DNA of 64,000 bases from Amoebophrya sp. A120 (lineage: Eukaryota; Protista; Dinoflagellata), in contig CAJINV010000019.1 in the NCBI GenBank assembly GCA_905178155.1, positions 914,913-978,912 of the forward strand, in the 5' to 3' direction. Positions 1 through 59,793 of the stretch are shown here, one piece after another. The stretch's first letter is position 1; the number at the start of each line of letters is the position of its first letter. Both the position numbers and the translations under genes were made by a program. Below the pieces are notes generated by a model. It did no database searches, was not told the DNA's origin, and saw only the letters and a list, made by a program, of their open reading frames with translations.

Positions 1-211
1 AACGAGCCGATCTTCGCACGGGAAAATAAACCTTCGCTGTCTTCTTGGAATCTTCGTGTGTGATTCAGACAAGAATCATCAAGACCAGCACTTCTGTGAA
101 CTTGGCGAAAAATCCACTGTAGTAGTCACCTCCGTCTTGCAATTGATTCTAAAACTCGGCCTGAAAAAACTAACTCGTCGCCTTCAAGAACTCGTGCACA
201 AGACCATCCCT

Positions 212-13097: not shown

Positions 13098-16000
13098 TCA
13101 GTGCTTAGCCGTAGGCAGCTTCAGCCTTTTCGGACTACTCTCCCCGTCACTCCACCTTTCCCCGCTTTGCAACGTTTTTTCAAAGTCTGCCATCTTCCAC
13201 GGTTTACTGCACTTGAAATCGTTGCGGACGGACCTTAACTGCCGGAAAATTTCCTCTTCCTTGGACTCCCCTAACTTTTTCGAAAACTGCTGCACGCGGA
13301 GAAAAGGCGACGTCAATAACTCCTCCTCCTATGCAAGAAAAAAACTGTGTAAGTGTAAGTCTGTGATGCAGAAAATGCAAAATAGTTACACTTGTCATGC
13401 TGGACATGCATCAGAAGCTCTTTTCGTGCGTGTTTTCACGTACTAGCCGCGCATGACAGGCTCTCTCTGTCATGTGAAGCAAATTTGTGATGCTATTCCT
13501 CCAAGAAAGTTACACTAACACAGTTTTTTTCTTGGATACCTCCGCGGTGAAGGGGACTGTGGGGATTTTGTCCTTGCGCAAGTCCACGATTTTCTTGCAC
13601 CGGTCGATCACTGCTTGCCGGCTCTGGTCCGACTTCTCCACCAGCGCGAGAGCGAACTGACACCCGTCCGTGGCGTACTCGTGGGCACAATAGATCAGCG
13701 TGGATTTCGGAATATGGTCCATCAGCCGCTGCTTCAGGGCCCTGCGGTATATTGTTTCTATAAATATTTTCAATTTTTTGAAAGCTCCCCCGCCGGCAAC
13801 CGCAACGCTAACTGCTGGCGTAGCAAGCCGACACAACACCACAAACCGCAATTGCACAGAGGATGTTCTTGACCTCTAGCCAAGTGAGAATTATGATGTG
13901 GGAGATGTTGACTAAATGTAGCAACAAGAAGTAAGATGAACATCTGTGTACAACGATACACGCAAGTTCACCGCAGACGTAGTAAAAGTACCTGTAGCAG
14001 TCCGCTGCGTCGCCCTCAAAGAGCCTGCCGCAGCCCATCGGAAAGACGATGTCACCGGTGAACACGATCCCGTAGGATTTCAAAAAGAACCCGATCTGCC
14101 CTAACGTATGCCCCGGAACGTGGATAATCTCGAAGTCCAGCGGCCCGAGGTTCAAGTGTTCCCCGTGTATGACAGTGCACAACTCCCCCTCCCCCTCATT
14201 TGTATAGCATGACCGGCAATACAAGCATCAGCAAGAATGCCGGTTGCGCATGACAAATTAGCATATGGAGTGTAGTGCCATTTGGGCTGCCAGAACTTGT
14301 CATGCAAACAGTGCCAAGAGGCAAAAAAGGGTGGATTGGGTATTTTGCATGACAAATGAGGGGCTGGGGGGGGGTTGTGCACTGTCATACCGTGCTTGCA
14401 GAGCTCGGAGAAGTCCGACTCTTCCGCGAATTTTTTCAAATTCGGCAGCTCGATCCGCGACGCGTACATCCGCGGCCGGTGGTTATTGTTCGCTTTGAAG
14501 TTGTCCGCCGCAATCTCGTTCCACGCGCCCAGGTGATCCCAGTGCCAGTGGGTGATGAGCACGTCTGTGATGACGGAGCCAAATTCCTCCTTTGCGCGCT
14601 GGCAGTACTCCAGGCCGTGCCCCTGCGGCAAGTCGATGGCGATCACGCGCGCGGCCTGGCTGGTCTGGCTCAAGCGGCGACTATTTGGGCTGTTGATGGT
14701 GCTGCCCGAAGTAGGTTCTTGCTCTGGAACATACAACAAGTACCCGTAGTTGTCACTTAGACACGGGAACTGGATCAACTTCAGCGTCGGATGCGACAGC
14801 TCCTTATCGAATTTCTCCGCAAACTTGTTCGCCTGAGTGTAATGCGGCCGCGGCGACCCCTTCGGCACAGATTTCAGCGGCTCGATGTCCACCCGCTGCA
14901 CTTCCGACCACGTCTGCCGCCCGTTGGACTTGTCCAGAAGCTTTTTGTTTTCCGAAGACGGGCCGGGGATAAGGTTTGATGATGAGTTACCTGCAGTTGC
15001 ACTCGTCGACATCATGGCCGCCGCGGCGGAGGGGCGAACTTTCGGCGAAAAACCACTAGTAGTATTCGAAGGCTTGATAGAAGCCGGCGAACCAGAGTTC
15101 GAGCGGGCGAGAGCAGATGAACCCCCGCCGCCGGAATTCGTGCGCGTCAGTCGGGGCGGCTTGGTGGTGGTCCCTCCAGCAGCTTTTGCCTTATTCTTCC
15201 TTTCCTCCTCGTCCACCTCCATCGTAGTCATCGCCACCGCGTGCGCGTGCACCCCGTGCGAAACAACCCCGTGCCCACTGCCCATCTTGGACTCCAGAAT
15301 TGTCAATTGCACCACCAAGCCGTCCGGATCCCGAACGCAGCGCAACACCGGGTCGAACGTGGGCGAAGTCGAGATCTTGCGAAACTGCGCGGGGGAGACG
15401 CCGATGGAGATGGATTCAAAAGCGGGCTTCTCCGGGCTCAAATCATCCGGGCCGGCGAGCACGGGTGCGTTTCGGTCCATATTCCGCATGTGCTGGATTT
15501 CCAACGTTGTAACGGGTAACTGGTACAACCACTCTCTTTGCGCTTGGATTTTGCTCTCCATAGTACCAATTTTGCTAAAGTCCGGAACTTTTTGCTTCAT
15601 TTCCTCCGTCAAATAGGCAAAGAAATACAGGTCGAAGTTGTACGGCGAAACTTCCTGTTTCTCCAATAAGGTCATGCCCAGCACCTCCGTGTAAAACTTC
15701 ACACACAAATTCGCATCTTTCGTCCGGGTGGTGACTTGCCCGATCACCGGGTCCAGCATGCGCGTTAACGGGTTCCGCGCACGAAGTCCGCTCGACTGCA
15801 GCTTCTCTTCCGCTTTCTCGATCCGTTTCTTTTTCGTGGCAGTGTTCCCTTCGAAACTCGTTTGGAGTAGCTCAATCGGAAAGCCGACCGGATCCGCGAT
15901 GTGCTCCAAGTAGCCGACGTTCAAAAACTGCTCGCCCTTCGCGTTTTTCTTGCCCAAACCGATTATTGTTTGCAAAAACGTCCCCACGACCCCACACTTG

Positions 16001-16581
16001 TCATGCAAAGTGGCATGCCTAAAATGTTTCTCATGCGCAGACACAGTAAAGCCATTTTCTAATGCTATCTGGAAGTTTGTGATGCTGGAATCACGCAAAG
16101 GTAGTCGATTTGTGATGCGTCGCCACTGCCTCAAACAGCACTACACTACGAGTCCAAATTTGTCATGCAAAACAGCCAAAGCCTCTAGGTTTGTGTTGCG
16201 AAATCCCCATCTTGACTCTGGGATGGGGACGCTTTTACTCAGGATACCGGTCCTCAAACAGTCATCGACGTCGTCTACCGCCAGCCCGATCTTCCAGTAC
16301 AGGGGCCGCTGGAAGTTCACTTGCTGCTGGCTACGATCCTTATTCTGGGCGACGACCTGCTTCCCGGGGGGCAAAAACCGGAAGTTGAGCTGCGCGGAAT
16401 GGGGCGAGTTCCGGAAATACAGATTGTCGATCGTTTGGCCGTTCGGAAAGGTCGCCGTTGTCTTCGCGACCATACCGAGCGACTCACTGTAGAACTTTAA
16501 AACCTCGTCGCGAAACTGCCCAGGCACGCGGTAGGTGGCGGCCAGGAGGCGGGACGAGGTCTGGTTCAAAGCTGATTCCAT
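13098..16581 (-). CDS. Glyoxalase I-like plus glyoxalase II fusion, copy B, ~834 aa
   Basis: Paralog of 4235-7344; shares the GT-AG intron (13742-13991) and has three copy-specific introners; spliced length 2505 nt. Confidence 0.88.
13330..13538. mobile_element. Introner family F4, DR CCTCC, copy-B specific
   Basis: TIR tatgcaagaaaaaaactgtgtaagtgtaa; reverse-complement homolog of 39394-39618; empty site near 4775. Confidence 0.92.
14168..14389. mobile_element. Introner family F5, DR CCGTG, copy-B specific
   Basis: Near-perfect TIR tatgacagtgcacaac; reverse-complement homolog of 35009-35224; empty site near 5415. Confidence 0.93.
15964..16246. mobile_element. Introner family F6 (TIR AAAAACGTCCCCA), DR CCGAT/CCGGT, copy-B specific
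   Basis: Empty site ccggt in copy A near 7010; similar to 24529-24813 and 37916-38201. Confidence 0.9.
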
Positions 16582-17205
16582 TTTTTCTTCTTATGTGCGT
16601 GTGGGCGTGGGGGGGGTTAGAAATGATTCTGTAGGCGTTTCTTATTTTTTATGAAGAGAGGAAACTAAGAATTTGGATTTCTTGCGTAACAATGCTAGAA
16701 CAGAATGTTGTGTGTAAGTAGGTCTACTGAATGAAATATTGATGTACGGTCGGAAAAACTTGAAAGAGATCACGACAAATTGCGTACTTCCTTAGCGTTG
16801 CTTCTACTAACTCCGATGAGGATGTGGCACTCAAAAATCAACCTGGGGGCGAAATCAGTAGCAACACCGTCGAGATAATCTTAATCAATACATGATAAAG
16901 TGGGATCAGAATGACTTACTTCTTATCTTCCTAGAAAGATCTTGACATGAACTTGAACAGGCACAGGTAAGGGAAATTGTAGATTAGAATTCTGTGTAGG
17001 AGCACCAACTGTCGACAATTTTGAGACAGTATTTACAATGGCATGCTGGGTCTGAGGTCGGCAAAATTGTTAGGTTCTGCTCACGATACCATTAGCATTA
17101 CCATTTCTTGTTCCATATCGAAAATAAACAGAGGATGCGTGAGATGGTTAAGGTACCGAATAAATTCTGATGGCGTGTGCGTGTCGAAGACAAAATTTAT
17201 CATTA

Positions 17206-17525
17206 TGAAACAGAAAACCGACAGGGTTCTGTGACTGTGGATCGTGCAACGCATGAGAACACCAGGAAGATCACCAGCGACAGACTGCTACGCAGTCTCA
17301 GGAAAAAAGGTTGATCATACTAGCAGAAAAGGCAACAAGCACAAGGCTTGAGCCAAACACAGGCAGCGTTAGTTCATGTAGTCTCATCCGGATGAATAGG
17401 CATTGTATTAGCTAGACCCAGGTAACGAGTACGACCCTAGGTAGACGAGTTAACTATCTCCTTAGCTTTCATACGAGCACAAGCAACCACACGTCACGAA
17501 CCGAAATTCCCTTGTGGAATTAACA
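17206..17525. mobile_element. 320-bp solo-LTR-like insertion (TG...CA ends, 4-bp TSD ATTA)
   Basis: Absent from copy A (attatgagat at 7921); ATTA at 17202-17205 and 17526-17529. Confidence 0.6.
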
Positions 17526-17925
17526 ATTATGAGATGAATGTACTCTCAATACCAAAATGTCGCCTTGAAAATTGGACGATTCTTGTCGCATTTCCAGAAG
17601 AGATCAGATATCTTCGCTCCCCAGCATGATATATTTTCTGCCATATCAATATCAATATCGGATCAAAATGTTGATATAAGCTTCGTCCTGCTTCGCGTCT
17701 ACTTAGCTCGATCTAATTTCAAGGAAAAAATGAACCGAGGTTTGCTAACAAGAAGCGTCCGCATTCTTCATGAAGCTTCAAAAGGGCATGATCGTCCGCA
17801 GAAAGACAATCAGCCGCATCAAGCTCACATAATCTTTGCTTGCGGAATCGATGATCGCACAACGACGTCAGATAACGATAACGAGGACCCAGCGTTCACC
17901 ATATATAATTTTTAGAGGTATAATT

Positions 17926-20900
17926 TTATCCCGGTCCTGCCTTCTGCGCGAACCCATCTCGCGGAATCTCCACGTAAAAGGGTCTGTCCCGCACGCAAAT
18001 GTGACTGATGGCGCACAAATTATCTTCCACCCAATCCTCCGCCATCTCCACCGTGTGTCCCGTCTGCAAGGTCGTTTTCCGCGGATAGAGGTGGTCTGTG
18101 TCGAAATCAACAGCATCCGAAGACGAACTGCTGGACGAGGAGGGTTTTTTGAATCTGCCTGCTCCGACGTCATTCATTTTTATTTTACTGCTGATCTCAC
18201 TTGACGCCGTTATTTTTTTCAGCGTCTTTCCCCCTGGCCAGCGCGGACTGTCTCCGCTACTATCTTCGGAGGATGACAACAAGATCACTTCATTGTCGTC
18301 TTCGGGCGGGAGGAGGAAGCTGTTCTTGTTTCTATTTGCATTTTGAAGATTCATGGAAGACTTTTTCTGCTCGTCCGGTGCTGGTGGTGGTTCTGCCGGA
18401 AATAAATGCTGTGCACCAGCACGCCGTCCAAGATCTGTAGCCCCAACGCCAGCACCACGATTCGCGGCTGCAAACACCTCCACCTGAGAAAAATCTGCCA
18501 CGTCTTTATTCGTCTCGTTCACGACTGTTTCGTTCACGACTTGTTCCTGCTTGATGTCCCCCTCCAGCCCAGTGACGTCGGCTTTGAGGACCCAACCGGA
18601 CTCACTAGCCTGCAAGTCCATGTTGCCCATCACGCTCTCGGTTTGCTTTTTCAGCAACTCGAGCTTGTTATCCCACAGAAGAGAGCAGGCAGGTCATATT
18701 TGTAATGCAAAAATAAATACAGAAAAAAATTTGGGTTGCGTGATATCCTAAACAGCTTGCTATGGGTATGGGGCTGCCCATGATAGATTTTTCTGTGTAT
18801 TTTAATTTGCATCACAAATATGCCTTGCCAGCTTTTTTCTGTGCGATACTTGTCCAGCACATCCTCCTTCGATTGCGGTTCGATCTTCCGCTTTTTTGGT
18901 GAGGGAAGTAGATCATCGTTTTTATTACCACCAGCACGAAGCTCTTTTTCTACTTCACTTGCGTTTTCACTCTTCTCATTCGCGGTCTTGGTCCCACCAC
19001 GTAGAGCTAGAGGTGACGGGCTGTTCCTCCTGCTTTGGTTCTTTATTGGCTCATCTTCTTGACTGAATGGGAGTAGTCTTTCCACGACTGGCTTCTTGTT
19101 CCTCGATGATAGTGGAGCTGCATCCATGATCTCTTTGCTTGTTTGTAGTTTGTCGTCGTGTTGTTCTTCACGATGCAAGCTGGTGCTGCCTCCCACCAGC
19201 AACGACCCTGAAGAAGCTACCGGTTCACTGCTTTTCCGCCTTTTGTTTCTTTTCGACGTCCTTGCGTGGAGGTCGGGATCTGCCACACCAGCACCGATCA
19301 TACACTTGTTATCTTGATAGACGAGCGAAGAAGAGAGAGACGGACCGCCGCCGTTCAACATATTCCCACGACTCTGAAACCCGTTTTTCCGGTACTGCCG
19401 GAACTTTTTCACGAACGTCTCTTCGTGCGCAAAGTCGAAGGTCCCGAGGGCCAGCCACATCGTGTGGCCCTGTTGCATGGCCGCCATCTCGTACACGATT
19501 GACAGGTGCGTCCCGCACTCGGTACACACGTGCCGCTTCCCGTGGTCCGTGGTTCTTTTCAGAATTAACGGGTGGCTCTTGCCCTGAATCACGGACCCGT
19601 TCGAGACGTGGTCTTCTTTGCGCACGTGCTTCCACTTGAACATGCTGTACTGCACCGGCGCCCAGGTCTGAAACGCGCACCCCGACATTCTGCGGCACAT
19701 CGAGCAGTAGCAGTGCTGAATTTCGCTGGGAAACACGTACGCCTCGAACTGACACTTGCCACACAAGCAGCTCCCCGTGAAGGACTCGATGGTGGGGCAG
19801 ATATCGTTGTTGTCTTTGGACGTGCTGGCCTATGGAAGCGTCAGAATCGAAATCCTCAAAGTTGAAATATTTTCTCATGCAGAAATTGCAAGGCATGGAG
19901 TGCCTCTCTTGCAGGGATTGCAAATGAGGCCGATTGTGAGCCTGTTTCGGGTTTGGAATAGAGCTGCTAAAGTAGCATAACAAAAGGCGCCTTCTGTCCC
20001 TAAACAGCATGACAGACTGGTTTTAGACGGTGCCGAAATTTCTCATGCGCCGCTGGGAAATTGGGCTTCCAGCTGGTATCGAATTTATGCATTACAAATC
20101 ATTCCAACTTTGACGATTTCAATCCTGACGCTTCCATATGGCCAAGTTGTTGTTTAATCCTCTTCTGCCGCCGGCCCCGGTAGGTGGTTGTTGCACAAAT
20201 TGATGATGTCTCGAACTTGATGTTGGCGTCCTGTTGTTCATCTGTGTGGTCGGAGCCCCACCTCCACCCCGCTGCCCAAACGACTGCACGATCTCGCTCA
20301 AATTTTTCAAATTTTCTTCCGAGTCAGAACTGGTCAGCGCCAAGTGGTCCGCGGCGTAGAATTTGTGCTGCACGAGTCCGAATTTCTCGAGTCTTTTTTT
20401 CTCCTCCTGCCGGGATTCCCACAGTTGCTTCTCCAGCATCCGGTCATTGATGTCGTCCTGGATCTGAAACATCTTCCAGCTCGGCAAATTCGCGCGCTCG
20501 ATGTGCGCCCAGCAGGCCCGTTGCTCCTGGAACCCGTAGTCGGTGATGTCGAACCTGACCCGCATGTCCTGGTACAGAAACCGGCCCTCCGGCCGAGAGT
20601 CGAGGACCATGCCACCGGAGGTGAAAAAGTTCCAGTAGGAGGCCTCGTTGTTCTGTCCATCTTCGGTACTAGTAGTTCTTGTGATCCTGCAAGCCATGCC
20701 CACGACACTGTAGCAATCCTTGCATAAGATCTTTTTCACCGGGGTCAAAAGTTTGGTGCTGGAGGTTTGGTCGCCGTTGCCAAAAAGTGAAGCAGAAGTT
20801 GTAGCCGATGAATTTTTGGTCGGCACCAACGCAGGAGTAGAAGTAGCTTCCTCGCATTGTATATTAATTGCGGAAGGTGTACTGAAATCCCCCGAGGTCG

Positions 20901-23900
20901 TGCGGGTTTTGATATTCGCCGGCACAACATTTGGAGGTTGCCTGTCGCCTTCTTGTTCGCGCGGTGGTGGTGCAGCTGTAGTACCATTATTCAATGAAGA
21001 AGGCCGGTCCTCAACTTGTTTCTCCTGGTACTCGCATGCCAGTCCTGCGCAGTAGGTTCCTACGTGGAGAAACCGGACTTTGTCGCCCTGCGCTTGATGC
21101 TGCCTGGCACCAGAAGCTGTTCCTGTGTAATTATGATTATGTCCTCGACTACTAGACAGAAAGTTCGAGGTTGGTAATACTAACCCGCCAGGCTGTCCCC
21201 CTCCTGGCCGTGATGTTGATAATGGCGGTGTCCTCAGTAGTTGAGAACGAATCGACATCGACTCGCCCGCAGAACTTCCAGTTTCTTTGTCCGCTGTTGC
21301 CATGGACTGGACAGCACCTCCCGCTCGGCGGCCAGCTTGTCTCTGTTCACTTGTTTGCTTCTCATACGGCTCGGTGTGGTAAAGTTTCATCTGTTCGTCC
21401 GTCAGTCTCGAGTATGGAAAGAAAAAAGTGTTAATACAGTTCTTAAACACTGTGTTGCAGGACAGGCAAGACAGATATACTTCTGTCATGCGCAAAATGC
21501 TTGCACGCCTCGTTTAGAACCTGTTTTCCCTAATGATCTCTGCAGCGCAAGTTTAAGTTTTCCCTGTCATGCAAGGCAACTTTGTGATGCTGAATTCATT
21601 TACAAATGTGTAACTGTATACACTTTTTCTTGGATATTGTGGGGCTCAGGTACAGTGCGTACGCCGCGCCTGCGTGTTTGCGGCAGAACCAGCAGTGGCA
21701 AACGTGCAGTTTCTATCAAATGCAAAAATGTCTGGGTCTGGAAGAGTCAGGGTTTGTCATGTACATTTTGCATGACCCGTGACGTCTGTGATGCAAACCC
21801 TAGCATCACAGCTTTTTCAAGAGCTTTTTGATGCTTACCACGCATAAGAAATGCCCTCTCCGCGTGCCAAGAACTGGACTCCTCTTGCTGCTCATGCAAC
21901 ACAGATATTTTTACAATCCGCAGACAGCATTACAAGTTCCACCCTTCATCCAGACCCAGACATTTTTGCATTTGATAGCTTCGGCTCCACGGCCGCCGTG
22001 TTGAAGCGAATTTTGGTGCACTGGCACTCGCACTGCGCCACGATTTGCTTCGGCACGTCGGGGCTTTTCTCTTGCAGCTTCAGCTGCCGCTTCACCTGCT
22101 CGTCCGTCAGCGTTTCTATTTGGGGCGCGACGGCACGGCTTTTCAGACAATTCTTCGGCTCGCGCTGCTTGAAAAGGTTGGATTTAAGCGGCGGTCGTGC
22201 AGGGGAGGCGGAGAAGACGCTGTCTGTCATCATGCTCGCGTGTTGGTTAGCCGGGTTGAAGGAGTTCTTTGAGTTGTTCAGTCCGAAGGGAACGGTACTA
22301 GCTGCTGCTGGGTTCTTGACGTCGCCGCTGTTGTTTGTCAACTTCGCAAACAGGGACGAGCTGGAGGAAGAAGAGGATGGAGCACCAGGACGAGGATCAA
22401 CACCCGCGGCGGCGGCAACATGTCCCTCTACAACGACGTCTCCTGGTGAGCTGTCGCGCAGCAACCGTGATCGTCCAGCTGTCACTTTCTTGTTGCCCGC
22501 GTCGGAGAAGACGAAGCCCGACCCGTCCGCGAGGTCTTCGAGCTCCACGCTATCCCGATCCAGGCCCGCTGCGACCGCGGCGTCCAGTGCGGATTCTCGT
22601 TATGCATTGCAAATATGTCTGGGTCCGGAACGCTGAAACTTGTCATGCGAATTGGGGATAGTGCCAAAATCTGTGTTGCGTGATTACCAAAAGGTGTCAC
22701 CTCTTGACCAAGTTGAGAGGCAATTTCTCATGCAGGCGAAGCATGATAGAGGTCCTCGCGCAGAATCTGTCATGCTAGGTCATGTATGACAGACCTCGCG
22801 CGTTATGGAAAACCTGCATGACAAGTTTAGACTCTACTTCCAAGCCTAAACCACATATTTGCAGTGCATACTCGCAAAACGCGCACCAACACGTCCTCTT
22901 CCTCCTCTTCGGTCGCGATATGGATTGCAAATATGTCTGGGTCTGGAAGACTGCCAGGTTTGTGATGCATGTTCTGCATCACCCATGAAGCCTGTAATGC
23001 ATGACCTAGCATCACAGATATTTGGAGGGCTTTCTGATGCCTATTCGGCATGAGAAATGCCCCCCCCCGCGTAGGACAAACAAACTGGTCTGGACTCCTC
23101 TTGCTTGTCATGCAATGCAGATTTGTTTAGAATCCAAAGATAGCATCACAAGCTGGATCTTTCCAGACCCAGACATATTATTTGCATTTAATACGCGATC
23201 GGAGGCTGCAACTGCCCGTAGATATAGTTGTCGTTCACGACGTGCTGGTCTTCACCACGTGAAGTTGTGGCGGCATGTAGTTCAACATCTCCCAGCTGAT
23301 TTATTCTGTCCAGATTTTCTATTCCCCCACTGTCAGCAACTACATCGTCCACATTCTCTTCCTCATCCGCGGGAATGACCAGATCGCCGGATTCCAGCTG
23401 CCGCAGGGTTTCCTTTCCGGCCTCGCTCAGCAGATCCCGCCACAGCATACCGCTCAGCGCTGCGACCATTTCGTCGGTCCCGTTGTTCATTTCTAATTCG
23501 ATCTTCTCCGCGACTTCTGGGTCCACCGATTCGCGGATCTCACCCAGAGCGCACACGGCGAGCAGCTATGGGATTCTCAAATGTTACATTCTCAACTGTT
23601 ACATGGATTTCCCATGCAGAACTACCATAAGCCGCCAGATGATCAAGCTAAGTACTTCGCATGACAAATCTCCGAAGGGCCAAACAGCATCTAAATCTGT
23701 GCCGAATCTGTGATGCGAAAGCAGCAAGCTTGCCACCTTGATTCTTGCTGTTCTTGCATTGCAAATTCATGCAACACTTGAGATTGTAACAGCTGAGAAC
23801 GCCATAGCAGCTCCTGCACGGTTTTGTCCTTGTGGGCGAGTTGGTTGCCCAGCTGGGCTTTTTTCTGCGCCTCCGACTGCGCAAAGTCCGCGAGGAATTT

Positions 23901-25799
23901 TGACGATGCTGCTGTCTCGACTTTTGATGTTTCATCATGTTCAGCATCCTCTCCGCCCAATCTCCGTGCCTGATCCTGAATTTCCAGTTCCTGTAGCTTG
24001 ATTTGCTTATCTTCGTCCAGCAGCTCCCGCCATTTCGCGGCATACAGCCGTTCCAGCGTCTCCTCGTTCTCTTCACGCTCCTCGTGTTCGATCTGTTCCG
24101 CCAGCGTCTCGTCTATCAAATGCAAACATGTCTCGGTCTGGAAATTTGTGACGCTACAGTGCGCATGATGTTGAAAACGCTTCCTTATGCACGAAAGCAT
24201 AACAAGTTTGCAGCAGGAGACCGCTTTATTTCTCATACACATTCCGCATCAGAACCTGCGTTTTTGTTTGACAAAACAGGCTGCGACTTTTGTTAGTCAC
24301 GCAATACAGATTTCACACCAATGTAAGGCCAGCATTACAAGTTCCAACTTTCCAGACCCAGACATATTTGCCATGCATATCGTCGATCTGCTCCCGAATG
24401 TCGTCGACGGTAAAAATATCTCGCAATTCCCCGATCGTCTTGTCGCGGTGCACCAACTGGTTTTGGAGGCGTAGCTGCTCCTCCGCCATCCGCAAGTGAA
24501 AATTGTCTTCGGCGCCCGGGCTGATCTCTATCGTGTTTAAAAACGTCCCCACCCCATAGTTGTAATGCAAATCTGCATGCTGAAAATGTCTCTCATGCGG
24601 AGCCCCACGAGAAGCATTTTCTCGCCGTGTTGTGGAATTTGTCATGCTCATATCAGGATGATATACTAGGTCTGTGATGCTGCTGAGGTAGCTCAAACAG
24701 CACTACACTACGAGTCCAAATTTGTCATGCAGAACAGCCAAAACTTGTAGATTTGTCTTGCCGCTTCGCTTCCCCATCTTGACTATGGGGTGGGAACGTT
24801 TTTCCATAGGATAATCTCCTCTTCATCGTCATTGTCCCCGATATAATCATCCTGCCCTTCTGAAGGCTGTGGACTGCCGAAAAATACACCGGAATAAAGC
24901 TGTTCTTCTTGAAGAGCAGGCCCTGCTGGTGGATTTCTTTTGCCCGTACTCGATGACGATGACGCAGCGGCAGCGCCAGTACCAGTCAGTATCGTTTTCA
25001 TCCCGTTTGCACGAGCTCCACCGCTCGCCGCAGTTATTCCCATTTGCTCGACGCTGTCAAACCGATCCGCGTGCTGATTTTCGTCGTAATTATTCATGAT
25101 GTCCTCTAGCACAGGAGGTGTACCGCTTGTTCCACCTAGAAGTTCCCGGGCCTCCCGCCTCCGTCTGCGCTCCTCCTTTCGCGCCTTTCGCTTCCTTTTA
25201 TGCTCCTTTGTCCGCTCCGACAGCTCTTCTTCCTCGTTGTCTGCGCCGGCGTCGGAGGGGTTATTTTGAAAAGCTTCACGTTGTTGCATCGGGACCCCAC
25301 GACCTGTAGAATTGTCGTCCTCCCCGACGGAATCTATGATCATATCATCCTCGTTGCTGATCAGCGGCTGATCAGCCTGCAGCTGCTGTTCAACTCCTTG
25401 CAGCTGCTCCCCGCCACCTCCACTCGCGTCGATCAGGGTCGGATCGTCGCAAATCGCCTGCGTGGCGGCTTCGGTGCTTCCGAAGGCCTCGATCAAATTT
25501 GCAGCCATCTCGGCGCTAATATTGAACAGCGCGACGAGCTCCGAGGCGCCGGAGTGATGTGAAGCTTGTTCTTGGTTCTGGCTATTTTTGACAGAGGCGA
25601 ATGCGAATGCCCCTGAGGCGGCACCAGGAGAGCCGTCGTGATTGAGGAGGTTCATGTTCATCTCCTGGTCGTCCGCTTGTTCCATCTCTATGTCGGCCGG
25701 TCCCTCTGCTACAGTATCACCGGCCGCAGGCGGAGGCACGCCATCGGGATAAGCTTCCTGTTCCTGCGGCAACTCACCATGACCATCGAAGGGCTCCAT
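17926..25799 (-). CDS. Large (~1838 aa) protein with two GFA/CENP-V-type Zn-binding domains, coiled coils and a possible N-terminal UBA-like helical unit; 9 introners
   Basis: Removing nine introners joins ten exons in frame (5517 nt). Motifs: CECQC...HVCHCWFCRKHAG...LCKDC and GSCLCGKC...HCYCSMCRRMSG...RHVCTECGTHL...SHICV. Confidence 0.8.
18669..18848. mobile_element. Introner, DR CTTGT
   Basis: ~43-bp imperfect TIR; spliced junction reads LDK|LELL. Confidence 0.9.
19831..20138. mobile_element. Introner family F3, DR TGGCC
   Basis: TIR tatggaagcgtcag; homologous along its length to 4440-4750. Confidence 0.93.
21413..21636. mobile_element. Introner (F4-related), degenerate DR TCGAG/TTGTG
   Basis: Homologous to 29127-29338; removal restores frame. 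Confidence 0.85.
21714..21977. mobile_element. Introner family F1, DR GTTTC/GCTTC
   Basis: Perfect TIR tatcaaatgcaaaaatgtctgggtctgga; junction gives KLHVCHC. Confidence 0.92.
22601..22870. mobile_element. Introner family F1, DR CTCGT/CTCGC
   Basis: TIR tatgca.tgcaaatatgt; internal similarity to 58663-58928. Confidence 0.9.
22919..23193. mobile_element. Introner family F1, DR CGCGA
   Basis: F1 TIRs; junction PIA|TEEE in frame. Confidence 0.9.
23567..23806. mobile_element. Introner, DR GCAGC
   Basis: TIR tatgg..ttctca.ctgttaca; junction ELL|AVC in frame. Confidence 0.88.
24114..24379. mobile_element. Introner family F1, DR TCGTC
   Basis: F1 TIRs; junction IDE|TLA in frame. Confidence 0.9.
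24529..24813. mobile_element. Introner family F6, DR ATCTC
   Basis: TIR aaaaacgt.cccaccccatagt; junction EEEI|SPG in frame. Confidence 0.9.
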
Positions 25800-26649
25800 T
25801 TTATTCGTTGTTGTTACGTTGCAGGTATCTGAAAGAATCGTGGCTGAAAATCTTCCTCAAGTCGATTGTATTTCTGTAGACACAACGAAGAACTTCGTAG
25901 TTGTGGGGCCCGGCCACGAATCACTCTACTAGAACTGGACGGCACGTCGCCAGGAAGAATGTCGCTGATGTCGCTGGATATTTTTATAGAGGACGCGAGA
26001 TGAAATGAATGAAGCAATGCTGGGACGGCCTGGCAACAAGTATAAATTGTTTAGGTCTTGAGGTACTTAAATGGACATCAAACTGATGAAACAGCAAAAG
26101 AAGAACACGTAGGCGATTCGAATACATTTTTGTTGTGGTGCCTGCAAACCTTCAGTGGAGCCCGGTCCTCTATCGGTAGAAGTTGTCTACCAGGTTGCAC
26201 TTTCAAGAATCGATCTGAACACAATTTTATTTTTACTTCAACTGATGAAGTTCATTGTTGCAGTGAACACGAGAGAACACTTTGGTGCTTAAAGAAATTA
26301 TGCTGCTGGAACAAGCGATTCCAGATATCATCCATCCGGTGAAGATGAGGAGATGATGTTGTTGTTGAGCATCATCAGAAAAATGAAAGTCGCTGTCGTC
26401 GCTGTTGACGCTGACGTCGGTGCTGATAAAGGACCATCATCTTCATGTACTAAAACTGCTTGTGCTTTAGTGGAAGTCTTGTGCTCCTGCTCCAGCGATA
26501 GCAATACACTTTTCCACGCGAGGAATGATCAACCCAAGTGGCTAATACTGGCCAGTGCTCCTAGAGAGAAGAATTTACATTCATAATTCTCCGCTGCCTG
26601 CATCTCATAAGAACATCTTCATGTCGTGCCCTGAAATTTAAGTACTGTA

Positions 26650-40500: not shown

Positions 40501-42720
40501 GTCTCACGTCGATGGGGTAGGAGCAGGTGCGAGACCCGATCTCGAACTGTCGCTGCGAAGCCACGGAGGGCGAAACATCGTCGGGAGACACGAAGTAGCT
40601 GGTGTTGGGAGAGCAACAAGTAGTTTTCCGTGCTTTTCTTGTAGTGTAGTGCTATGTATCCTCTACGCATGCCAACATAATTTTGAAAAATGTTATTCTT
40701 CGTCCAGTTCAAATCATGTGTCAAAAGTGGTAAAGAGAAGACTGCACGTTAGCTGCAGCACTACTGATTTATCAGCAAAAAAAACTGTAAGCAATATCCG
40801 ATGTAGTTGACTTTCAGTACCCTTCCCCGGTCCGCTTGACCCTCCCCGCACTGCCGCTGTCCCCGCCGGCATTTTCGCAAATCGACTCCTCTTCCTCTTC
40901 TTCGCGGACCGGTGGTAATCTCCCTTCTTCCACGAAATTTCGATTTACCAGCACCACGCACTGCTCCTCCACCTCCTTCAACGACTCCAGCGCCTCCTCC
41001 CAGCTGGCCACCAAAACCAGTGTGAAGATGGCTTGCCTTATCAAAGTGAAAAAAGCCCCCACCCCATATCGGAAACGGAAGATGCGCGAATTTGTGATGC
41101 TGTATTTGAGTACACAAATGGACTTGTATTGCTAGAAGGCCAAGACCAAGAGACGAAGCTGCGGCCTAAATTGTAGGTAATCTGTCATGCTGTTTCCCAC
41201 TTCCAGCTGCCTCCTGTCATCCTCGAGCTGCAAGGCTTTCCCACGCTAGACAGCACTACAGTCCGCATCTTTTGCCTTCTAGCATCATAAAGCTGATTTG
41301 TGACCACAAATCTGCATCACAGATTTATTCCGTTTTGATATGGGGAGGGGGCATTTTTCATTGTAATATGCCTCGCGTTTTGGACAATCCCGCGGACACG
41401 CAACGCGAGCAATTGGTCCTCGGTTTGGAGGTTGGTCGTGTTGTCCTGCTGCAGTTGGTCTCCTGCTCCTCCAGCTGCTCCGGGGGACGGAGTGGTCGCT
41501 GCTCGCATATCAAATGCAAAAATGTTTGGGTCTGGAAGAGTCATGCCGTTTTTGCATGACGCAGAAGGTCTCGCATGGAAGCGCTAGCATCACAGGTTTC
41601 GAGACGCTTCCGCAATGCCGAATCCGCATGACAGATCCCCCATTTTGGTGACAGAAAGTGGGCAGCTGTTGCCCACTATGCATGAGAGATATTTCTGCGT
41701 TCTGAAATGCGCATCACAAATTTGTATTCTTCCAGACCCAGACATATTTGCAATCGATATCGCACGGACGGGAGCAACAGCTGTCGCACGTTCTCGGGCG
41801 TGTTCACGATGCGGAGCTTCAGCAGAAAAACCGCAGGCGGGGGGCGGACCTGATTTTCTATAAGGATCATTTTTGGGTATTCGTTCTTCTCGTTCTTTCA
41901 TCCGGAATAGAAAATCGAAACGCAAATTTCAACTTACGTACGTATGTATGCTAACACGACAGCGCATCCTATCTTTTTTTTTTTCGTTTCCCGGAGTGGC
42001 AGGGGGACGAATGTGTTTGTGTTGGTGTAGTTACGGTTGCCTGCTCGTGCTATTGGTGTTTTTGCTATAACAAGGCTAAGCTTTTCTGCAACAAGATTGA
42101 TATACACAACCTGCATGTTGACAACCAACAAAAACCTCGTCCTGTGCTGTCAAGAAATATACCCTCTCCCCGTTCCTGTGCAGCATGGGCAGATTTAGCA
42201 GCCCTTCGCTTGTGAGCATCGCATTCCCCACCCCGCTCATCGAGGGGAGCAGTTGCATCTGCAAATGCACCACCAGCCCGCTGTTATCGTCTAGGCAGAC
42301 CGCATTTTCGTAGAAACCGTTTTTCGAGATCTGCGCGTCCTGCGAGGGATCCAGCAGTTCGCGCATTGACAGCGTCAGCAGTGTCGTCGTCGATTCTAGC
42401 GTGTCCGGCGACATCCCGGTAGCGGACGTTTGGTTGACGGGGGGCAAAATCTGCTTGAGAAACAGCTCCTGCACGGACCACAGGTGGTCGCAGACCTCGG
42501 GAAGCGTGCCCGGGATGCACATCAGGTAGCTGGTATTGGTGGAGGTTGATGGTTGTGTCGTGCTCGAACTGCTGGAGCTGCTGGTTGTAGTACTTGTGGA
42601 GGAACTTTGCTTGTCCAGCTGCAACAGAAATTTCCGGACCTGCCAATTCAGGGTTAGCACTGAAAGGTCGGAAACCACCTCCAGGCCCTCCAGCCGAAGC
42701 CGGAGAAGCACGGAAGACAT
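34509..42720 (-). CDS. CEP120: CEP120-like centriolar protein (C2 domain plus coiled coil), ~1423 aa, 8 introners and 5 GT-AG introns
   Basis: C2-type segment WRLSIELR...KYFYPF...FRTNPP...LPHGFAAY...EVWQRD...LG, then VFLEDLG, YSAAYELELWK and C-terminal RDELLESGLYAPDD, resembling CEP120 from memory. Canonical introns at 41850-42135, 40599-40820, 37378-37572, 36181-36386 and 35617-35828. Spliced length 4272 nt. Confidence 0.78.
35009..35224. mobile_element. Introner family F5, DR CAGTG/CAGCG
   Basis: Opposite orientation to 14168-14389; junction STL|QVP in frame. Confidence 0.9.
36932..37094. mobile_element. Introner family F2, DR GGAAG
   Basis: TIR tgcaaaagta.cg.act; junction VSS|MDG in frame. 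Confidence 0.9.
37916..38201. mobile_element. Introner family F6, degenerate DR GCAGT/GAAAT
   Basis: TIR tatcct..gtaaaaacgtcc; removal restores frame. Confidence 0.88.
38260..39305. mobile_element. Introner family F2 (~145 bp) expanded by a nested insertion, DR CATTG
   Basis: F2 TIRs at both ends; DR at 38255-38259 and 39306-39310; the two halves match the 963-1115 element. Confidence 0.88.
38299..39195. mobile_element. 897-bp nested GC-rich element, TG...CA ends, 4-bp TSD CATG (solo LTR or TIR element)
   Basis: Interrupts caatCATGcattacaa of the host introner; ends are tgaaccagta and tgctgcttca. Confidence 0.75.
39394..39618. mobile_element. Introner family F4, DR CACCC/CCCCC
   Basis: Reverse-complement homolog of 13330-13538. 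Confidence 0.9.
40010..40270. mobile_element. Introner family F1, DR ATTTC
   Basis: Reverse-complement homolog of 58663-58928; junction RGN|NGN in frame. Confidence 0.92.
41039..41368. mobile_element. Introner family F7 (TIR GAAAAATGCCCCC.CCCCATATC), DR TGCCT
   Basis: Opposite orientation to 48928-49248; junction ARQ|AIF in frame. Confidence 0.9.
41508..41759. mobile_element. Introner family F1, DR TCGCA
   Basis: F1 TIRs; junction SVR|AAT in frame. Confidence 0.9.
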
Positions 42721-48894: not shown

Positions 48895-49451
48895 CTAATA
48901 CCCCATCTGGCGCAGCAGCACTTCCGTTATTAAGAGGAAACATCCCCCCTCCCCATATCGAAAAGGTATGTCTCCGGAAATTTGTGTTGCTGATTTGCGA
49001 CCTCAAATCACGTCTGTCCTGCAAGAAGGCATCTCCACAAGCTCCGCAGCATTGTGCAGGCGATTTGTGATGCTGATGGGCCTACAGCACGGACGTTTCT
49101 CATGCTAGACGCCTAGGCCAGAGCCTCTCTACTTAGGCTTAGTATGGGGCTGCATTCCTCTCCAGCAAGACAAATCTTATTTGTGTACGCAAATCCTGCA
49201 TCAGAAACTTCGTTTTGATATCGGGAGGGGGGATTTTTCCTTTTGTTATCCGTGTAGGTCGACCCTCCCGCGCAAGCCGCCGCCGTACTACTCACTTTCT
49301 CCTTGGTGCCATCGCGTAAAAACCGCTGCGAATCGAAGAAGAGCTCCGGCTTCTTCTGATACCGCCAGTACGAGTCTCGGACCTTGGTCACGGCGGGCTG
49401 TGTTGAAGAATTATTGTGAAGATTTTCTCTTCTTGCTTCTCTGGTCAACAT
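48895..49451 (-). CDS. Small hypothetical protein or terminal exons (~76 aa), revealed by an introner
   Basis: Removing 48928-49248 plus one DR gives MLTREARR...GSTYTEVLLRQMGY-stop. Confidence 0.5.
48928..49248. mobile_element. Introner family F7, DR TCCGT
   Basis: DR at 48923-48927 and 49249-49253; TIR ggaaa.atcccccctccc.atatc. Confidence 0.88.
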
Positions 49452-51080: not shown

Positions 51081-51120
51081 GAGTCACTGCTACAATGCCC
51101 TGTCTTAACAAAAGAACCTA

Positions 51121-54473: not shown

Positions 54474-56622
54474 CTACCTCTTTGTCCTCCACCTTTCTTT
54501 GACACTATCCGTTGAGAATTTAAATGCCCTTTTCCATATCACACGGCTAAACGCTTCACTTTTAAAAACTTCACTTGCTAAAAAAAATCTTTTTTTAGTG
54601 AGGTTTGGCGCTGTTGCTTACAGCATCAGCAGCTACGTGCCGACGACGGCATTGCGGCGCGTGCACCTTCTGCATCAGTGGAAGGACGACTGGGCCTTGC
54701 TTTGGGGGGTAGAGGTTGGCAGTTGACTAGTGAAGACGCCACGGCTTATAATTCTGAGAGCGAAACTCCCGAAGAGTCTTCATTTGAGTAAGATGAAAGC
54801 AAAGCGGAGACTTTTGTGTGCGAAAAAGTGAAAAAGTCGATGACTTGACAAAAAAATGAATCGCTTGTGGGTTTTTTGAGCGTAGCACCGGCCGAAGAAT
54901 CAGCAAAAATCCAGAAACTGGCTCCGGTGACAAACGATTCACTTTGGCCATATTTGGCCGCCGCAGCATCGGCGCAAGCTTCCAAAAACGAGCACTTTTG
55001 AAAATCATCGAAATGGTGCATCAAAGCGATGCTTTTGTGACAAGTGCTATGTTTTTGAGGCGTTTTGGGTTGGACTCAGCTCGTGGCTGACAAGCGATTC
55101 ACCTCACAAAGTTGGCCAGTTTTGGTGGCCCGAAAGTGGCTCTGTTTTTGAGGCCTTTTGGGTTGGAGCATAGGCGTGGCTGACAAACGATTCACCTCCT
55201 CGAAACAGCTGCTTTGCTTTCAGAGATCCAAAAAATCCCCCAAAGAAAATTTTTTTTAAGGAGTGAAGTTTTTAAGCGTGAAGCGTTTAGCCTTGTGATA
55301 TTCCAACAGTCGTGTTCTTCATTATCCGGCCAGGGGCGCTCCTCGCCGTGCCGCGCCTTTGCATAACAACCACACTCGGCAAGAGCCAAGCGGTGGAAAA
55401 CAAGCGTGTTATGCATTGTAGCTATGTCTGGGTCTGGAAGAATGCAGCCTGTCATGCAAACTCTCGATCACATAAAAATTCGTGTTGCATGAACGCCAGT
55501 AGTTGCCCTTGCTAGGGAAAAGCTAATTTCTCATTCTCATTCGGAATTGGCATGAGGATTGTCTTGCAAACTCTGTCATGCTTCTCTGTGCAACGCAGTT
55601 GCAGACACAGACCATGACCATGTGCGTGGTCCGCCGCGAGATGCAAAACAAATTTTGCACTCTTCAAGACCCAGACATATTTGGAATGCATACGTGTACA
55701 GGAACATCGAGTCTGTTGCTACTGGCTCCGCGCCTACTTCCTGTCGACGGCGATTCGCCAGTACCGCATCCCAGGCCTCGAGGTTCTGGTCGAATGCATG
55801 AGCGCGGTCGAACATAGACACGACGTTTTTCAGCTTCGTGGTCACCTCCCATTCTCCGAGGTCCTGATTGAAGCTTCTGGCAGTGGCAAACATATATTCC
55901 ATGTTTTCTACCTCGCTCACGCGCCACGAGCGAATCGAACGGTCGTTGAAGTCACGGCAGCCGAAAAACATCCAGTCCATCCTTTGCACCGTACTCGTGT
56001 CCCAGTATAGCGGCTGATTAAAGCCCTGGCCGCAGTCCGCAAAAGCAGCGCTCATGTCTCTGATACCCCTGGTATTCCAACGCGAAATCCGAAAAGACGG
56101 GACATACATCTGACTCCACCGAAGCGACTTGTATTCATCATAGTGGCAAAACTCTGGAAGCTTGTCAAGCCCGCCAACGTCCCACTGCTCCACCGGGCCG
56201 TATCTTGCCTCGGCGGCGTTCCGAAGATCCTCGTAATTTTGCTCGCTTTGATTCCCGTCTGGAGCTCTGATAGTTCTAGCTTCGTCAGTCCACCAAAGCT
56301 GCATAGCCTCCTCGAGTTCCTGCAGAGACCGGAAAGCGCGGAAAACTTGCTGCCTCCTGTGGCCTAGGCTCTTTTCTGCTTCCTGCAGTGCTGCCCGAGT
56401 TCCCTTCGAGACCCGGGCGAGTCTCCCGTAGTCCCGTTCGGTGCGGAGGAAGCCTTGGAAACGATTGTTAAGCACTTCTTGCACTACTGGATCATCTCTT
56501 CCAAGAAAAATAGCGCGGCCCCGTTGATCTCGATTGTTGTCAGGTTCAACCCTGGCAGCGACGACCATTGTGGTCGCCACAGCAAAGACTGTGAAGATGT
56601 TGAAGCTCAAACTACGCATCAT
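54474..56622 (-). CDS. Secreted DUF285 (BspA-family-like) repeat protein, ~363 aa, 2 introners
   Basis: Signal-peptide-like N-terminus; repeats ISRWNTRGIRDMSAAF, FNQPLYWDTSTVQRMDWMF and FNQDLGEWEV...VVSMF; spliced length 1092 nt. Confidence 0.82.
54537..55300. mobile_element. Long (764 bp) introner-type element, ~60-bp TIRs, DR TTCCA
   Basis: Ends tatcacacggctaaacgcttcac and gtgaagcgtttagccttgtgata; DR at 54532-54536 and 55301-55305; internal ~56-bp repeats at ~55050 and ~55143. Confidence 0.88.
55410..55692. mobile_element. Introner family F1, DR CGTGT
   Basis: F1 TIRs; junction FLYT|LVF in frame. Confidence 0.9.
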
Positions 56623-57447
56623 GTTCGTGGTAAAGGCAATGCTAACAAGAACTCGAACAAGTTAAACTTAAAGTTAATGTTTGTACACGCCGTACTGGTA
56701 AAAGATAACGTAAGATTCCAAAACTTTTAGGCCTGCAACTTTGATTCACTCATGCATCGTCGATGAGTTACGCCACTCGGAGCTGCAACTTTAGGTGTAA
56801 ATGTATGCTTAGAACAAGGATGTCAAGAACTAATGATCAACTTTGATCGTGATATGATGGTGATCCTTGACATATTTCGCATGATCGTGGTATTTCATAT
56901 GATCGTGATTGACGATGATCCTATGATGATTTAGATTTCCTCACTCGATCGAACCACTGTGCAAAAAGGAGATAAGTCCTTTCAGAGCTCGACTCTTCAT
57001 GATCAAGTGGATCGTATATTCTTGCGCTCCTCTTTAAAAACAGATCCAGGCTGTATTCTTTTTGAAAGTGAGTACATGCACCGACATCATTACAGAAGCA
57101 GGCGTCGTGTCTCTCTTGTTGCACTTCGCACAAAATGGGTAAAACTAAACAAATGAAAGAGGTTCTCGCATGGACTTTTCACAAACACCGGTGAAGACAG
57201 CAGTACAGACGAAGGATCAATAGAACACCAGAACTACACACAGAACGAAAGCGACTACGACGTGGATGAACGAGGTACGAAGTACTTATCACGATGACAT
57301 TGCAATTCTTTCTCATCCCAAGAAGAAAACTGTTTCTTCAGTCACAAACTTTGCAACTTTTCGAAATTTCAGCACAAAAATTCGATTTCAAGACGAAGAC
57401 GAAACAACATCGTATAAAAAACAAGCAGTGACCACCTTCGGCCTTTT

Positions 57448-59793
57448 TCAGGAGTGCCCAGCCTTGCTCGCACCTCTACTTTCGTCCTCTTTCTCTCTAC
57501 CCACATTTTTAGCATTTCCACCGCTCCAAACCAGCCACGCCCTCAACCCCAGGCAAAACAGCGAGAACACGGATGCGATTCCGTTCACGATTCCTGCGAC
57601 GTAGAGACTCGGACCGGACTGGATCCCGTGGTAGAACCACAAGCCGCAGACGAATAGCCCGGCGCAGTTTTGCGACACCGACCCCATGAACAGCGGATTT
57701 TTCTCCTGCCACGCACGGTAGGAATACCGAACCGGCGCGCCCATCATGGTCAGGAAGGTGCAAACGCCGAGGGTGGAAAACAGAATTTTTACCTCGTCAA
57801 TCATCACGGTTTCCTCGCCATTCCGCTCTTTCGCCGACAGGCTGCTCCCGGAGAGATCGCTGTCAGAAGAAGAAGAAGAGCTAGTTGTACTTCCACCCTG
57901 GTCCTCCTCGCCGTTGCCTCCCCCGTCAAAAAGACAAGTGAACACGTATTACAATGAAAAATGCCCCCACCCCACACTTGGCAGCATTTGTATTGCAAAC
58001 CTTTCCAATAGAAACGCTTCCCGTCTTGCATATCTCAGGATCACAAATTTTCCATGCTGAATAGCGCGAATTTGTGTTGCGGAGGGGCCCAACAGCATCC
58101 GGATCTGTTATGCACAAGGCACCTTGCGCACCTAGATTCTGCATCAGAAAAGCTCGCAATCCTTTCATGCAAGACAAAAAGCTTTCATTTGGAAACTTTG
58201 CATGACAACCTTTTGCAAATTCGGGGGTGGGGGCACTTTTCACTGTAATAACACGTCCGGGCGGTCGTGAAAAACCGTGAGGAGGAAGCATCAAATGCAA
58301 AAGTGTCTGGATCTGGGAGAATGCAAGATCTGTCATGCATATTTCTCATGACCCATGATTGTCTGTGATGTATGCCCTACCATCACAGATTTTTAGAACC
58401 CTTCCTGATGCACCTTCCGCATGAGAAATGCCCTGTCCGTGCAGCACAAATTGTACCCCTCTTGCTGGTCATGCAACACAATTTTTTTTCGAGTCCAGAA
58501 ACAGCATGACAAGGAAGTTACCACCTTCCAGACCCAGACATATTTGCAATGCATAGAAAGACCAGCGTGACGAAACACAGATATAGAATCAAAAACAGCA
58601 ACAATCGCTTCAACTCTTTCTCATACAAGTCCCGCCGGTAGTATTTGCAGTAGAGAAACAGCTATCAAATGTAAAAGTGTCTGGGTCTGGAAGAATGCAA
58701 CTTGTCATGCTAAATCTGAAGCATGCAAAAATCTGTGTTGCATGACTACCAAAAGCCGTCCAGTTTTGACCAAGTCGGGAGGAAGTTTCTCATGCAGGAT
58801 AGGCATGAGAGAGATCGCACAGAATCTGTCATGCTATGAATGTCCTGCATTCCAGACCTCATGGGTCATGGAAAAGCTGCATGACAAATCGCGCACTCTT
58901 CCGGACCCAGACATTTTTACATTTGATAACAGCCACAAAAACCCGGTGGAAATCTGCAGGCAGCCCTGGGGCACGCCGGTGCGGAAGCCCTGGAGCAGAA
59001 AAAAACTGGTCCACGTCCAGCCATTCGCGCACTGCGCGACAAATTGGAGCGGGGGGGTTTCCAGTTGGTCCTCGAGGTGATCATCAAGATCTCCTTCGTT
59101 TTTGCAGTTTTTCAGATCGGGCTGGGGAGCCGCAGCAGTTGACTTAGACTTCTGTACCACTTCGCCGGCTTCTTGTCGTTGTTTTGTCCCTTGCGAAGCT
59201 GCAACAAACGCTGTGGTCGCGGCCGCATTATAGTCGTGCTCCTGAGCAGTGTCGACATTCATATTACCGTCAGGTGGCTCGACGGCGATAGCAACATGAT
59301 CTTCATTTTCTCTCGTTAAACTCGGATCTTTGTCACGAGAGCTTAAATCTGCTGGAAGAACATCCTCTTCATCTAGTGTCGGAACCACTTCTTCATCTGC
59401 GTCTGTCTCTACTTCCAGCAACACATCCGGTACCCCCGGGCGCGAAGAGGCAGCAGTGCCCCCGGTCGTGCTTGCGGAAGAAAGGTTTTCCGCTGAGATG
59501 ACCAGAGAAGCGGTGCAGGGCTTCATACTCATGGAGCAGGTCTCTGATGTTAAATACAGATTTTTAACGACTTCTGTGCTGCCTTCTGCGTGAAGATCCG
59601 TTTTATTCGTTTGTGCAGGTGCATTCTTTGGATGTTCATCCAGGAGCGCAGCGGCCTTGGCTTTATTCGCTTCTTCCTCTTCCCGCTTTCTCGTGCGTTT
59701 CCTGACGGAGAGACGATAAAAGACCTCCCCCGGACCACCGAACAGGAAGATGGGAAGCGTGATAACCAGAATGTCGTAGGTTAGCTGAGCCAT
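57448..59793 (-). CDS. SWEET/MtN3-type sugar transporter-like membrane protein, ~497 aa, 3 introners
   Basis: Two MtN3-like halves (LFGGP..F.R...PLQF..Q.ANGWTW and MMGAPV..SY.AW..KN...M...CGLWFYHG...VNGI) with about seven hydrophobic segments; spliced length 1494 nt; alternative start 59862. Confidence 0.7.
57947..58250. mobile_element. Introner family F7-like, DR ACACG
   Basis: TIR tattaca.tgaaaa.tgcccccacccc. Confidence 0.9.
58289..58555. mobile_element. Introner family F1, DR GGAAG/GAAAG
   Basis: F1 TIRs (one end CAT rather than TAT); frame restored. Confidence 0.88.
58663..58928. mobile_element. Introner family F1, DR ACAGC
   Basis: TIR tatcaaatgtaaaa.tgtctgggtc.ggaag; junction LWL|FLY in frame. 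Confidence 0.92.

Follow-up and report, generated by a model that had tools for sequence, protein, structure and literature searches.

Within a 64-kb stretch of the genome of Amoebophrya sp. A120 (contig CAJINV010000019.1, positions 914,913 to 978,912; hereafter the window, to which all counts refer), members of the same introner families lie in both orientations in coding exons of minus-strand genes and are removed in either orientation. The cut position likely follows the direction of transcription. The elements are the published introners of A120, i.e. miniature inverted-repeat transposable elements (MITEs). According to the text of Farhat et al. (2021; PMC7789003), these show inverted ends of TAT, seven looser bases and at least three A, direct repeats of 3-5 nt, a length of ~240 nt and non-canonical borders; the same text records no transposase in them, and they have been assigned to several types of transposable elements (PMC12130899).

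The search relied on inverted ends and flanking repeats, the TAT/ATA ends themselves being a search criterion, and identified 34 complete elements, between 150 and 1046 nt long. Under looser criteria, a scan for terminal inverted repeats (TIRs) with target-site duplications (TSDs) yielded 36 matches, compared with 2-8 in each of ten shuffles. Truncated or broken elements at 51154-51352, 52017-52098 and 52143-52350 stand outside the 34; counts out of 32 omit the duplicates 9051 and 9314, and counts out of 31 also omit 48928 (elements are named by their first position). As in the published introners, the ends consist of TAT, seven looser bases and an A-run (end logos of 32 elements), direct repeats border the elements (5 nt in all 34, with identical copies in 24), families recur (five multi-member groups), and the elements are removed from transcripts (one contig joint, and 17 of 17 cases in database proteins, not raw reads). 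The depth of sequencing run X5 is far higher in element bins than in unique DNA. The elements also show the MITE features, being short, non-coding and multi-copy, with TIR, TSD and either orientation. An Rfam search gave no matches.

Orientation of the elements, their host genes and their removal

A first-pass annotation of the window had listed nine of these elements in five reverse-complement pairs. All nine are present, with inverted TAT/TAA...ATA/TTA ends and 5-nt direct repeats. For comparison of the interiors, 30 nt were trimmed off each end, and local alignment scores as reverse complement and on the same strand were set against 400 shuffles. Four of the pairs are homologous as reverse complements beyond their TIRs, with scores of 127 vs 18 for 13330/39394, 166 vs 27 for 14168/35009, 234 vs 21 for 58663/40010, and 167 vs 24 for 22601/40010 (shuffle maximum 26). 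Global identities, in the same order, amount to 72, 80, 82 and 74% as reverse complements vs 53, 50, 50 and 51% on the same strand; with 60 nt trimmed, the reverse-complement values are 65, 79, 81 and 73%. The fifth pair, 41039/48928, was dropped as an opposite-orientation pair, as its local scores (51 vs 39) are accompanied by global alignments that lean to the same orientation (60 vs 57%; 56 vs 52%), and its long subterminal symmetry leaves the orientation undecidable. Both orientations are found in four of the five multi-member groups, at a ratio of 5:3 in family F, with some group links being weak (local scores 59-66). TIR transposons ordinarily insert in either orientation. Family-F ends (e.g. 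40010 vs 58663) fall into two types, TATCAAATG and TATG(C/G)ATTG. Which of them sits at a given end varies between close homologs, a pattern that suggests exchange or homogenisation between ends.

The annotation had further placed all nine elements in host genes of one strand that need them removed. This holds for eight, which lie in minus-strand hosts: six are removed in database proteins, and for 13330 and 14168 the need follows from empty sites in tandem paralogs together with an open frame. The exception is 48928, the removal of which leaves just 12 open codons on one side and which has no clear coding host. Over the window as a whole, retained elements would introduce a stop or shift the frame in 33 cases out of 34. 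Removal of nine elements, each with 5 nt, from 17929-25856 opens one minus-strand frame of 1857 aa from stop to stop, as against 464 aa without splicing and 261 aa for the plus strand; in the database, this continuous frame appears as two separate proteins. The frame test is blind between 2, 5 or 8 nt of flank, and the value of 5 was taken from repeats, paralogs, and database proteins.

Four database proteins span 17 elements, and all 17 are missing from them with exactly 5 extra nt (eight in P0001, two in P0005, four in P0006, and three in P0007). Opposite orientations are dropped from one and the same product: P0006 lacks 22601 as well as the opposite-orientation 22919 and 21714, and P0007 lacks 58663 and the opposite-orientation 58289. 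Exon 36384-36926 matches P0001, a protein attributed by its source to Amoebophrya sp. A120, at 100% (A25 ortholog, 52%); P0001 may resemble CEP120. Homologs are continuous over several junctions in the P0001 and P0007 genes, a GFA domain runs across two junctions, and the sequence GFLWL/FLY across 58663 is conserved in four homologs.

A tandem duplication (window ~1-8164 and 8482-17782, 86-97% alike) comprises two genes, one of them a glyoxalase and metallo-beta-lactamase fusion. Two introners are common to both copies, and introner presence differs at at least six sites. Paralogous empty sites with a single 5-mer copy were found for 13330, 14168, 15964, 4440, and 418, and a less clean one for 9537. 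The flanking repeat is therefore a target duplication made at insertion, and insertion or precise loss went on after the tandem duplication.

Read evidence covers the window up to 31900 (runs X1, X5, X8 and X9). The single direct joint is provided by an X1 contig that joins 18849 to 18663, and in two bins that X5 covers the depth of X1 is zero; the raw RNA runs X8 and X9 cover just two and four of 30 bins. About 72 RNA reads of X8, at 21714-21745 and 22662-22687, contain a short family-F-like piece with foreign flanks, derived from a copy at a different locus that is either unspliced or has an internal deletion.

Cut register, element ends and internal motif

Canonical splice sites hidden in the TSD were ruled out, since only 3 of 31 elements can be read as G[TCA]..AG in one or other of six registers. 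The TSD bases of these 31 elements show no consensus. The borders are not the GT/GC...AG of U2-type introns, nor do they offer the canonical-like donor and the AG acceptor from TIR or TSD that are typical of Aureococcus and Polarella introners. At 39394, P0001 makes no use of the available GT..AG cut, which is shifted by +3 nt and would give a stop.

The two TSD copies differ in ten elements. At 39394, the downstream copy would give TGA where P0001 shows Gly; the residue of P0001 at 37916 is Phe, as encoded by the upstream copy, and not Cys; at 21413, P0006 has Thr from the upstream copy, and the start of an X1 piece at 21407 agrees with an origin of the fourth base from this copy, too. The transcript-upstream copy is kept in all three informative cases, and the paralogous empty site of 15964 equals the upstream copy as well. 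Of the other mismatches, four are synonymous and uninformative, and those of 963/9314 lie outside the comparison. With the upstream copy retained, the cuts lie 0-1 nt ahead of TAT on the 5' side and 4-5 nt past ATA on the 3' side, and since 39394 and 21413 are opposite-orientation relatives, this register likely follows the transcript and not the element. Within the 5-mer, positions 2 and 4 account for ten of the 11 mismatches between TSD copies, and positions 3 and 5 for none (post hoc chi-square test, p=0.016); insertion chemistry or constraint may account for this bias.

A single end consensus, TAT-N7-AAA, is common to both ends across unrelated families and is the only feature that all ends share. 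Among 480 end positions of 32 elements, 386 pair, 19 form G-U, 17 form A-C, and 58 other combinations. Positions 9-13 pair in 28-31 of the 32 elements, positions 4, 5, and 7 in 19, 18, and 12. In most elements the ends are predicted to pair on either strand, with predicted pairing spanning 0.0 (9537) to 0.97 and reaching 0.40 in 22919, which is removed. No sign of selection for pairing of the sense-strand RNA (G-U over A-C) was seen, at low power.

The motif GCAT(G/C)A(C/G)A occurs 73 times in sense and 57 times in antisense, in 31 of 32 elements, with a density of 7.0 per kb in elements vs 0.14 elsewhere. At 35-65 nt from the 3' end, it is found on 22 sense vs 20 antisense strands of 32, which does not support a branch point at fixed distance. 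It is missing near the sense 3' end of 39394, 41508, 36932, and 38260, all four of which are removed. Its spacing peaks at a period of 10.3 nt (R=0.39, a value not attained in any of 1000 randomised placements; R=0.40 for 15 representatives), a statistic that does not give a clean probability because families share ancestry. Such spacing likely reflects a DNA-level signal, and the motif is a putative protein site on DNA for mobilisation rather than a splice signal. The idea of the first-pass annotation that internal bidirectional motifs guide removal is accordingly doubtful. One copy (37511) lies in the GT-AG intron 37378-37572, which may be a decayed introner, and a second apparent intron contains or adjoins two further copies (near 9903 and 9945).

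Table 1. Elements and host genes in the window, with window coordinates
Feature	Position	Strand	Remarks
Introner, family H, orientation a	13330..13538		TSD CCTCC; last coding exon of glyoxalase/metallo-beta-lactamase copy 2; empty paralog site near 4770
Introner, family H, orientation b	39394..39618		Imperfect TSD; frame kept by transcript-upstream copy only (other copy TGA); removed with 5 nt in P0001
Introner, family H, orientation a	21413..21636		Imperfect TSD, upstream copy kept; within GFA domain; X1 piece starts 21407
Introner, family H, orientation a	29127..29338		Gene with FAD-binding domain; open reading frame evidence only
Introner, family G, orientation a	14168..14389		TSD CCGTG; empty paralog site near 5414
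Introner, family G, orientation b	35009..35224		Removed with 5 nt in P0001
Introner, family F, orientation a	22601..22870		Removed with 5 nt in P0006
Introner, family F, orientation a	58663..58928		Splits motif GFLWL/FLY, conserved in four homologs; removed in P0007
Introner, family F (weak link), orientation a	55410..55692		DUF285 gene; open reading frame evidence only
Introner, family F, orientation b	40010..40270		Removed in P0001
Introner, family F, orientation b	21714..21977		Within GFA domain; removed in P0006
Introner, family F, orientation b	22919..23193		48 nt from opposite-orientation 22601; removed in P0006
Introner, family F, orientation b	58289..58555		Sense 3' terminal base changed (ATG), yet removed (P0007)
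Introner, family F (weak link), orientation b	41508..41759		Removed in P0001
Introner, family-F ends, orientation weakly b	24114..24379		
Introner, family-F ends, orientation weakly a	9537..9772		Predicted sense-strand end pairing 0.0; absent from paralog
Introner	41039..41368		Removed in P0001; related to 48928
Element related to 41039	48928..49248		Perfect TSD; no clear coding host
Introner, ends like 41039/48928	57947..58250		Removed in P0007
Introner	37916..38201		Imperfect TSD; upstream copy kept (Phe, not Cys) in P0001
Introner	15964..16246		Paralog empty site equals transcript-upstream TSD copy
Introner, family and orientation as 37916 and 15964	24529..24813		
Introner, family K, opposite to 760/9051	38260..39305		1046 nt, ends intact; removed in P0001
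Introner, family K	760..916		Duplicate 9051-9267; sole element whose retention keeps the frame
Introner, family K, opposite to 760	963..1115		Duplicate 9314-9463
Introner	18669..18848		Transcript joint: X1 contig 18849 to 18663, element and 5 nt gone; also P0005
Introner, family and orientation as 4440	19831..20138		
Introner	4440..4750		Absent from paralog copy 2
Introner	418..638		Absent from paralog copy 2
Introner, single member	23567..23806		
Introner	36932..37094		In stretch conserved in A25 and JGI homologs
Element, 764 nt	54537..55300		Perfect TSD, intact ends, internal direct repeats; without internal motif
Host gene, two GFA domains	17929..25856	-	Nine introners; database pieces P0006 (partial) and P0005
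Host gene of P0001 (1414 aa)	34512..42720	-	Eight introners, five GT-AG introns; no Pfam match
Host gene of P0007 (520 aa)	57451..59862	-	Three introners, two of family F in opposite orientations

Two further loci deserve mention. At 51121-52389, two truncated introners and a direct repeat of 38 nt enclose an AAA_8 fragment of a dynein heavy chain, which has a stop a short way upstream; the segment, which also contains an 82-nt mini-element (52017-52098) with no matching TSDs, is possibly captured or misassembled. The stretch 30140-30770, upstream of a gene, is GC-rich and self-complementary, and X5 depth is raised there (132).

Candidate machineries of removal

The first-pass annotation had reasoned that, splice signals being strand-specific, recognition depends on symmetric information or excision happens on double-stranded DNA. 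Removal independent of orientation indeed relies on information identical on both strands, and the orientation-blind removal and the shared TAT-N7-AAA end support this part of the proposal, in which the paired stem is a hypothetical requirement and the internal motif doubtful. The premise was overstated, as a TIR is the same sequence on both strands and introners of Polarella and Aureococcus are known in both orientations. Orientation independence also implies that no strand-specific internal signal is involved and that recognition is confined to ~15 terminal bases.

Removal very probably takes place on RNA, with cuts set by the direction of transcription, 0-1 nt before TAT and 4-5 nt after ATA. 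As to the machinery, we see roughly even chances that an altered spliceosome removes A120 introners from pre-mRNA by reading their orientation-symmetric inverted ends. Elements sitting in coding exons in either orientation, between 5-nt duplications, present the same inverted ends whichever way they lie. A joint claim, which may with equal probability be right or wrong, puts the 5' cut 1 nt before TAT with N-TAT in the place of the local GTA(T) donor, of which it would lack the G, derives the 3' end from TTT-N7-ATA and not AG, and assigns the reaction to U2/U5/U6 without a recognisable U1. Canonical donors in the P0001 gene are GTA in 5/5 and GTAT in 3/5 cases, the nine predominant non-canonical pairs of A120 listed in Table S4 of PMC7789003 all start with NT, and G is the commonest base before TAT (13/31). 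According to the text of the same paper, U1 was undetected in the two introner-bearing strains A25 and A120, U2, U4, and U6 being present and U5 in A120; a strain with mostly GT/AG introns is described to possess U1 (PMC12005148).

Several points weigh against an altered spliceosome and the register on which it is built. The NT starts in Table S4 may reflect an aligner sliding joints inside the TSD, the excess of G before TAT is not significant (p=0.08), and cuts 0 and 1 nt before TAT are indistinguishable, since no TSD mismatch falls on the last base. A missing AG acceptor is hard to reconcile with a spliceosome, as is the missing fixed branch-like motif, none of which was found at the sense-strand 3' end. 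The direction rule comes from three database cases and one paralog, and the gene models of A120 were built from transcripts with choice of the longest open reading frame (PMC7789003), so that, being cDNA-derived, they are not independent of the frame logic. Direct read evidence consists of one contig joint, from a run (X1) that is only presumed to be RNA.

The altered spliceosome has a slight advantage over a non-spliceosomal RNA machine that would read the paired terminal stem and cut with an offset (short 5', longer 3' overhang), of the kind proposed for nonconventional introns of Euglena. We consider such a machine possible, at clearly less than an even chance. The lack of conserved end dinucleotides at the cut speaks for it, as do the nearly constant pairing of positions 9-13 and the predicted pairing on either strand in most elements, and the offset of 0-1 nt at the 5' and 4-5 nt at the 3' side resembles the Euglena pattern N3CDG...CH'GN5-6 given in PMC12501133. 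However, G-U and A-C combinations are about equally frequent and thus give no sign of selected pairing, positions 4, 5, and 7 pair poorly, predicted pairing is zero for 9537 and low for the removed 22919, and transposition already accounts for the symmetry of the TIRs. It is tentatively conceivable, with a likelihood of the same modest order, that A120 possesses a general transposon-removal splicing system, either separate from or deeply altered from the spliceosome, which would ignore end dinucleotides, accept any TAT...ATA inverted end whichever way it lies, and cut at fixed offsets along the direction of transcription, thereby reversing the target duplication exactly. If so, any exon position would be a harmless insertion site, convergent with Euglena.

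Both remaining explanations conflict with the directional register, which argues for removal on RNA and against DNA excision and jumping of reverse transcriptase alike. Excision from double-stranded DNA, similar to that of ciliate internal eliminated sequences (IESs), would leave a single direct-repeat copy behind. It would account both for the loss of one TSD and for orientation independence, and the helical spacing of the internal motif would suit it. It is nevertheless most improbable: in the DNA-like run X5, contigs span exon-element borders at a depth of 41-45, like unique DNA, none of the 15 joints listed is precise (728 more are in the set), and the retained TSD copy follows the direction of transcription. 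The absence from expressed DNA that characterises ciliate-type IESs is thus not seen in X5, the one run concerned. Amoebophrya is not known to have a germline/soma split, so that excision from DNA would delete the elements for good. The joints could also be template-switch artefacts of reverse transcriptase over a hairpin and direct repeats, which would be blind to orientation. Hairpins with short direct repeats are a described substrate (PMC2923612), and every joint here is cDNA-derived. This, too, we regard as very unlikely, because 33 of 34 frames would break in proteins conserved across the junctions, and removal must therefore occur in the cell; moreover, the enzyme would presumably copy and keep the downstream repeat, and it is the upstream copy that is kept.

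Comparison with known introners and nonconventional introns

The removal of tens of thousands of non-canonical introns in Amoebophrya is stated as open in PMC7789003. The A120 introners described there and the elements of the window agree in organism, inverted repeats, direct repeats, borders, and size; insertion orientation, the repeat copy that is kept, and a helically spaced internal motif are absent from the text of that paper. No published statement on these three properties in A120 was found, and figures, Huff 2016, the journal version of Roy, and the datasets of PMC12130899 may hold such. The elements, and both-orientation introners elsewhere, are thus known; new are the both-ways property in A120 and the likely transcript-directed cut, which narrow down the question of how introners are spliced. 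Mismatched target duplications offer a means of fixing the true cut register despite the repeat, and existing data allow their use across the genome. The spread of the elements through exons would be explained by a machine able to reverse a 5-nt duplication exactly, wherever it lies and whichever way the element points; such a machine would also amount to a rule of splicing that dispenses with an AG acceptor.

Introners of Polarella glacialis are MITE-like with TIR and TSD, and several classes make introns in either orientation (bioRxiv 10.1101/2020.10.14.339549, which also cites both-orientation introners of Aureococcus anophagefferens); insertion in opposite orientation is likewise allowed for in the method of PMC9860276. 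In Polarella and Aureococcus, a G[TCA] donor and an AG acceptor are provided by the TIR or a constrained TSD, whereas the TSD of A120 is unconstrained and 28 of 31 elements lack such a register. The introns of Fritillaria resemble those of A120 in their mass departure from GT/AG and their proposed transposon origin, and are handled by a modified U2 spliceosome, as may be the case in A120; U1 and preferred border dinucleotides are retained in Fritillaria (PMC13326754, PMC11282704). Nonconventional introns of euglenids share non-canonical borders, offset terminal pairing with a longer 3' overhang, frequent direct repeats, and a proposed MITE origin (PMC12501133, PMC6221363); the searched text of these two papers contains no orientation analysis. 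They differ in a CDG/CHG motif at +4/-8, in proof by knock-in, and in belonging to an unrelated lineage, and the window elements do not carry the Euglena-type signature N3CDG...CH'GN5-6/R, their TAT...ATA ends lying 0-1 and 4-5 nt from the cuts.

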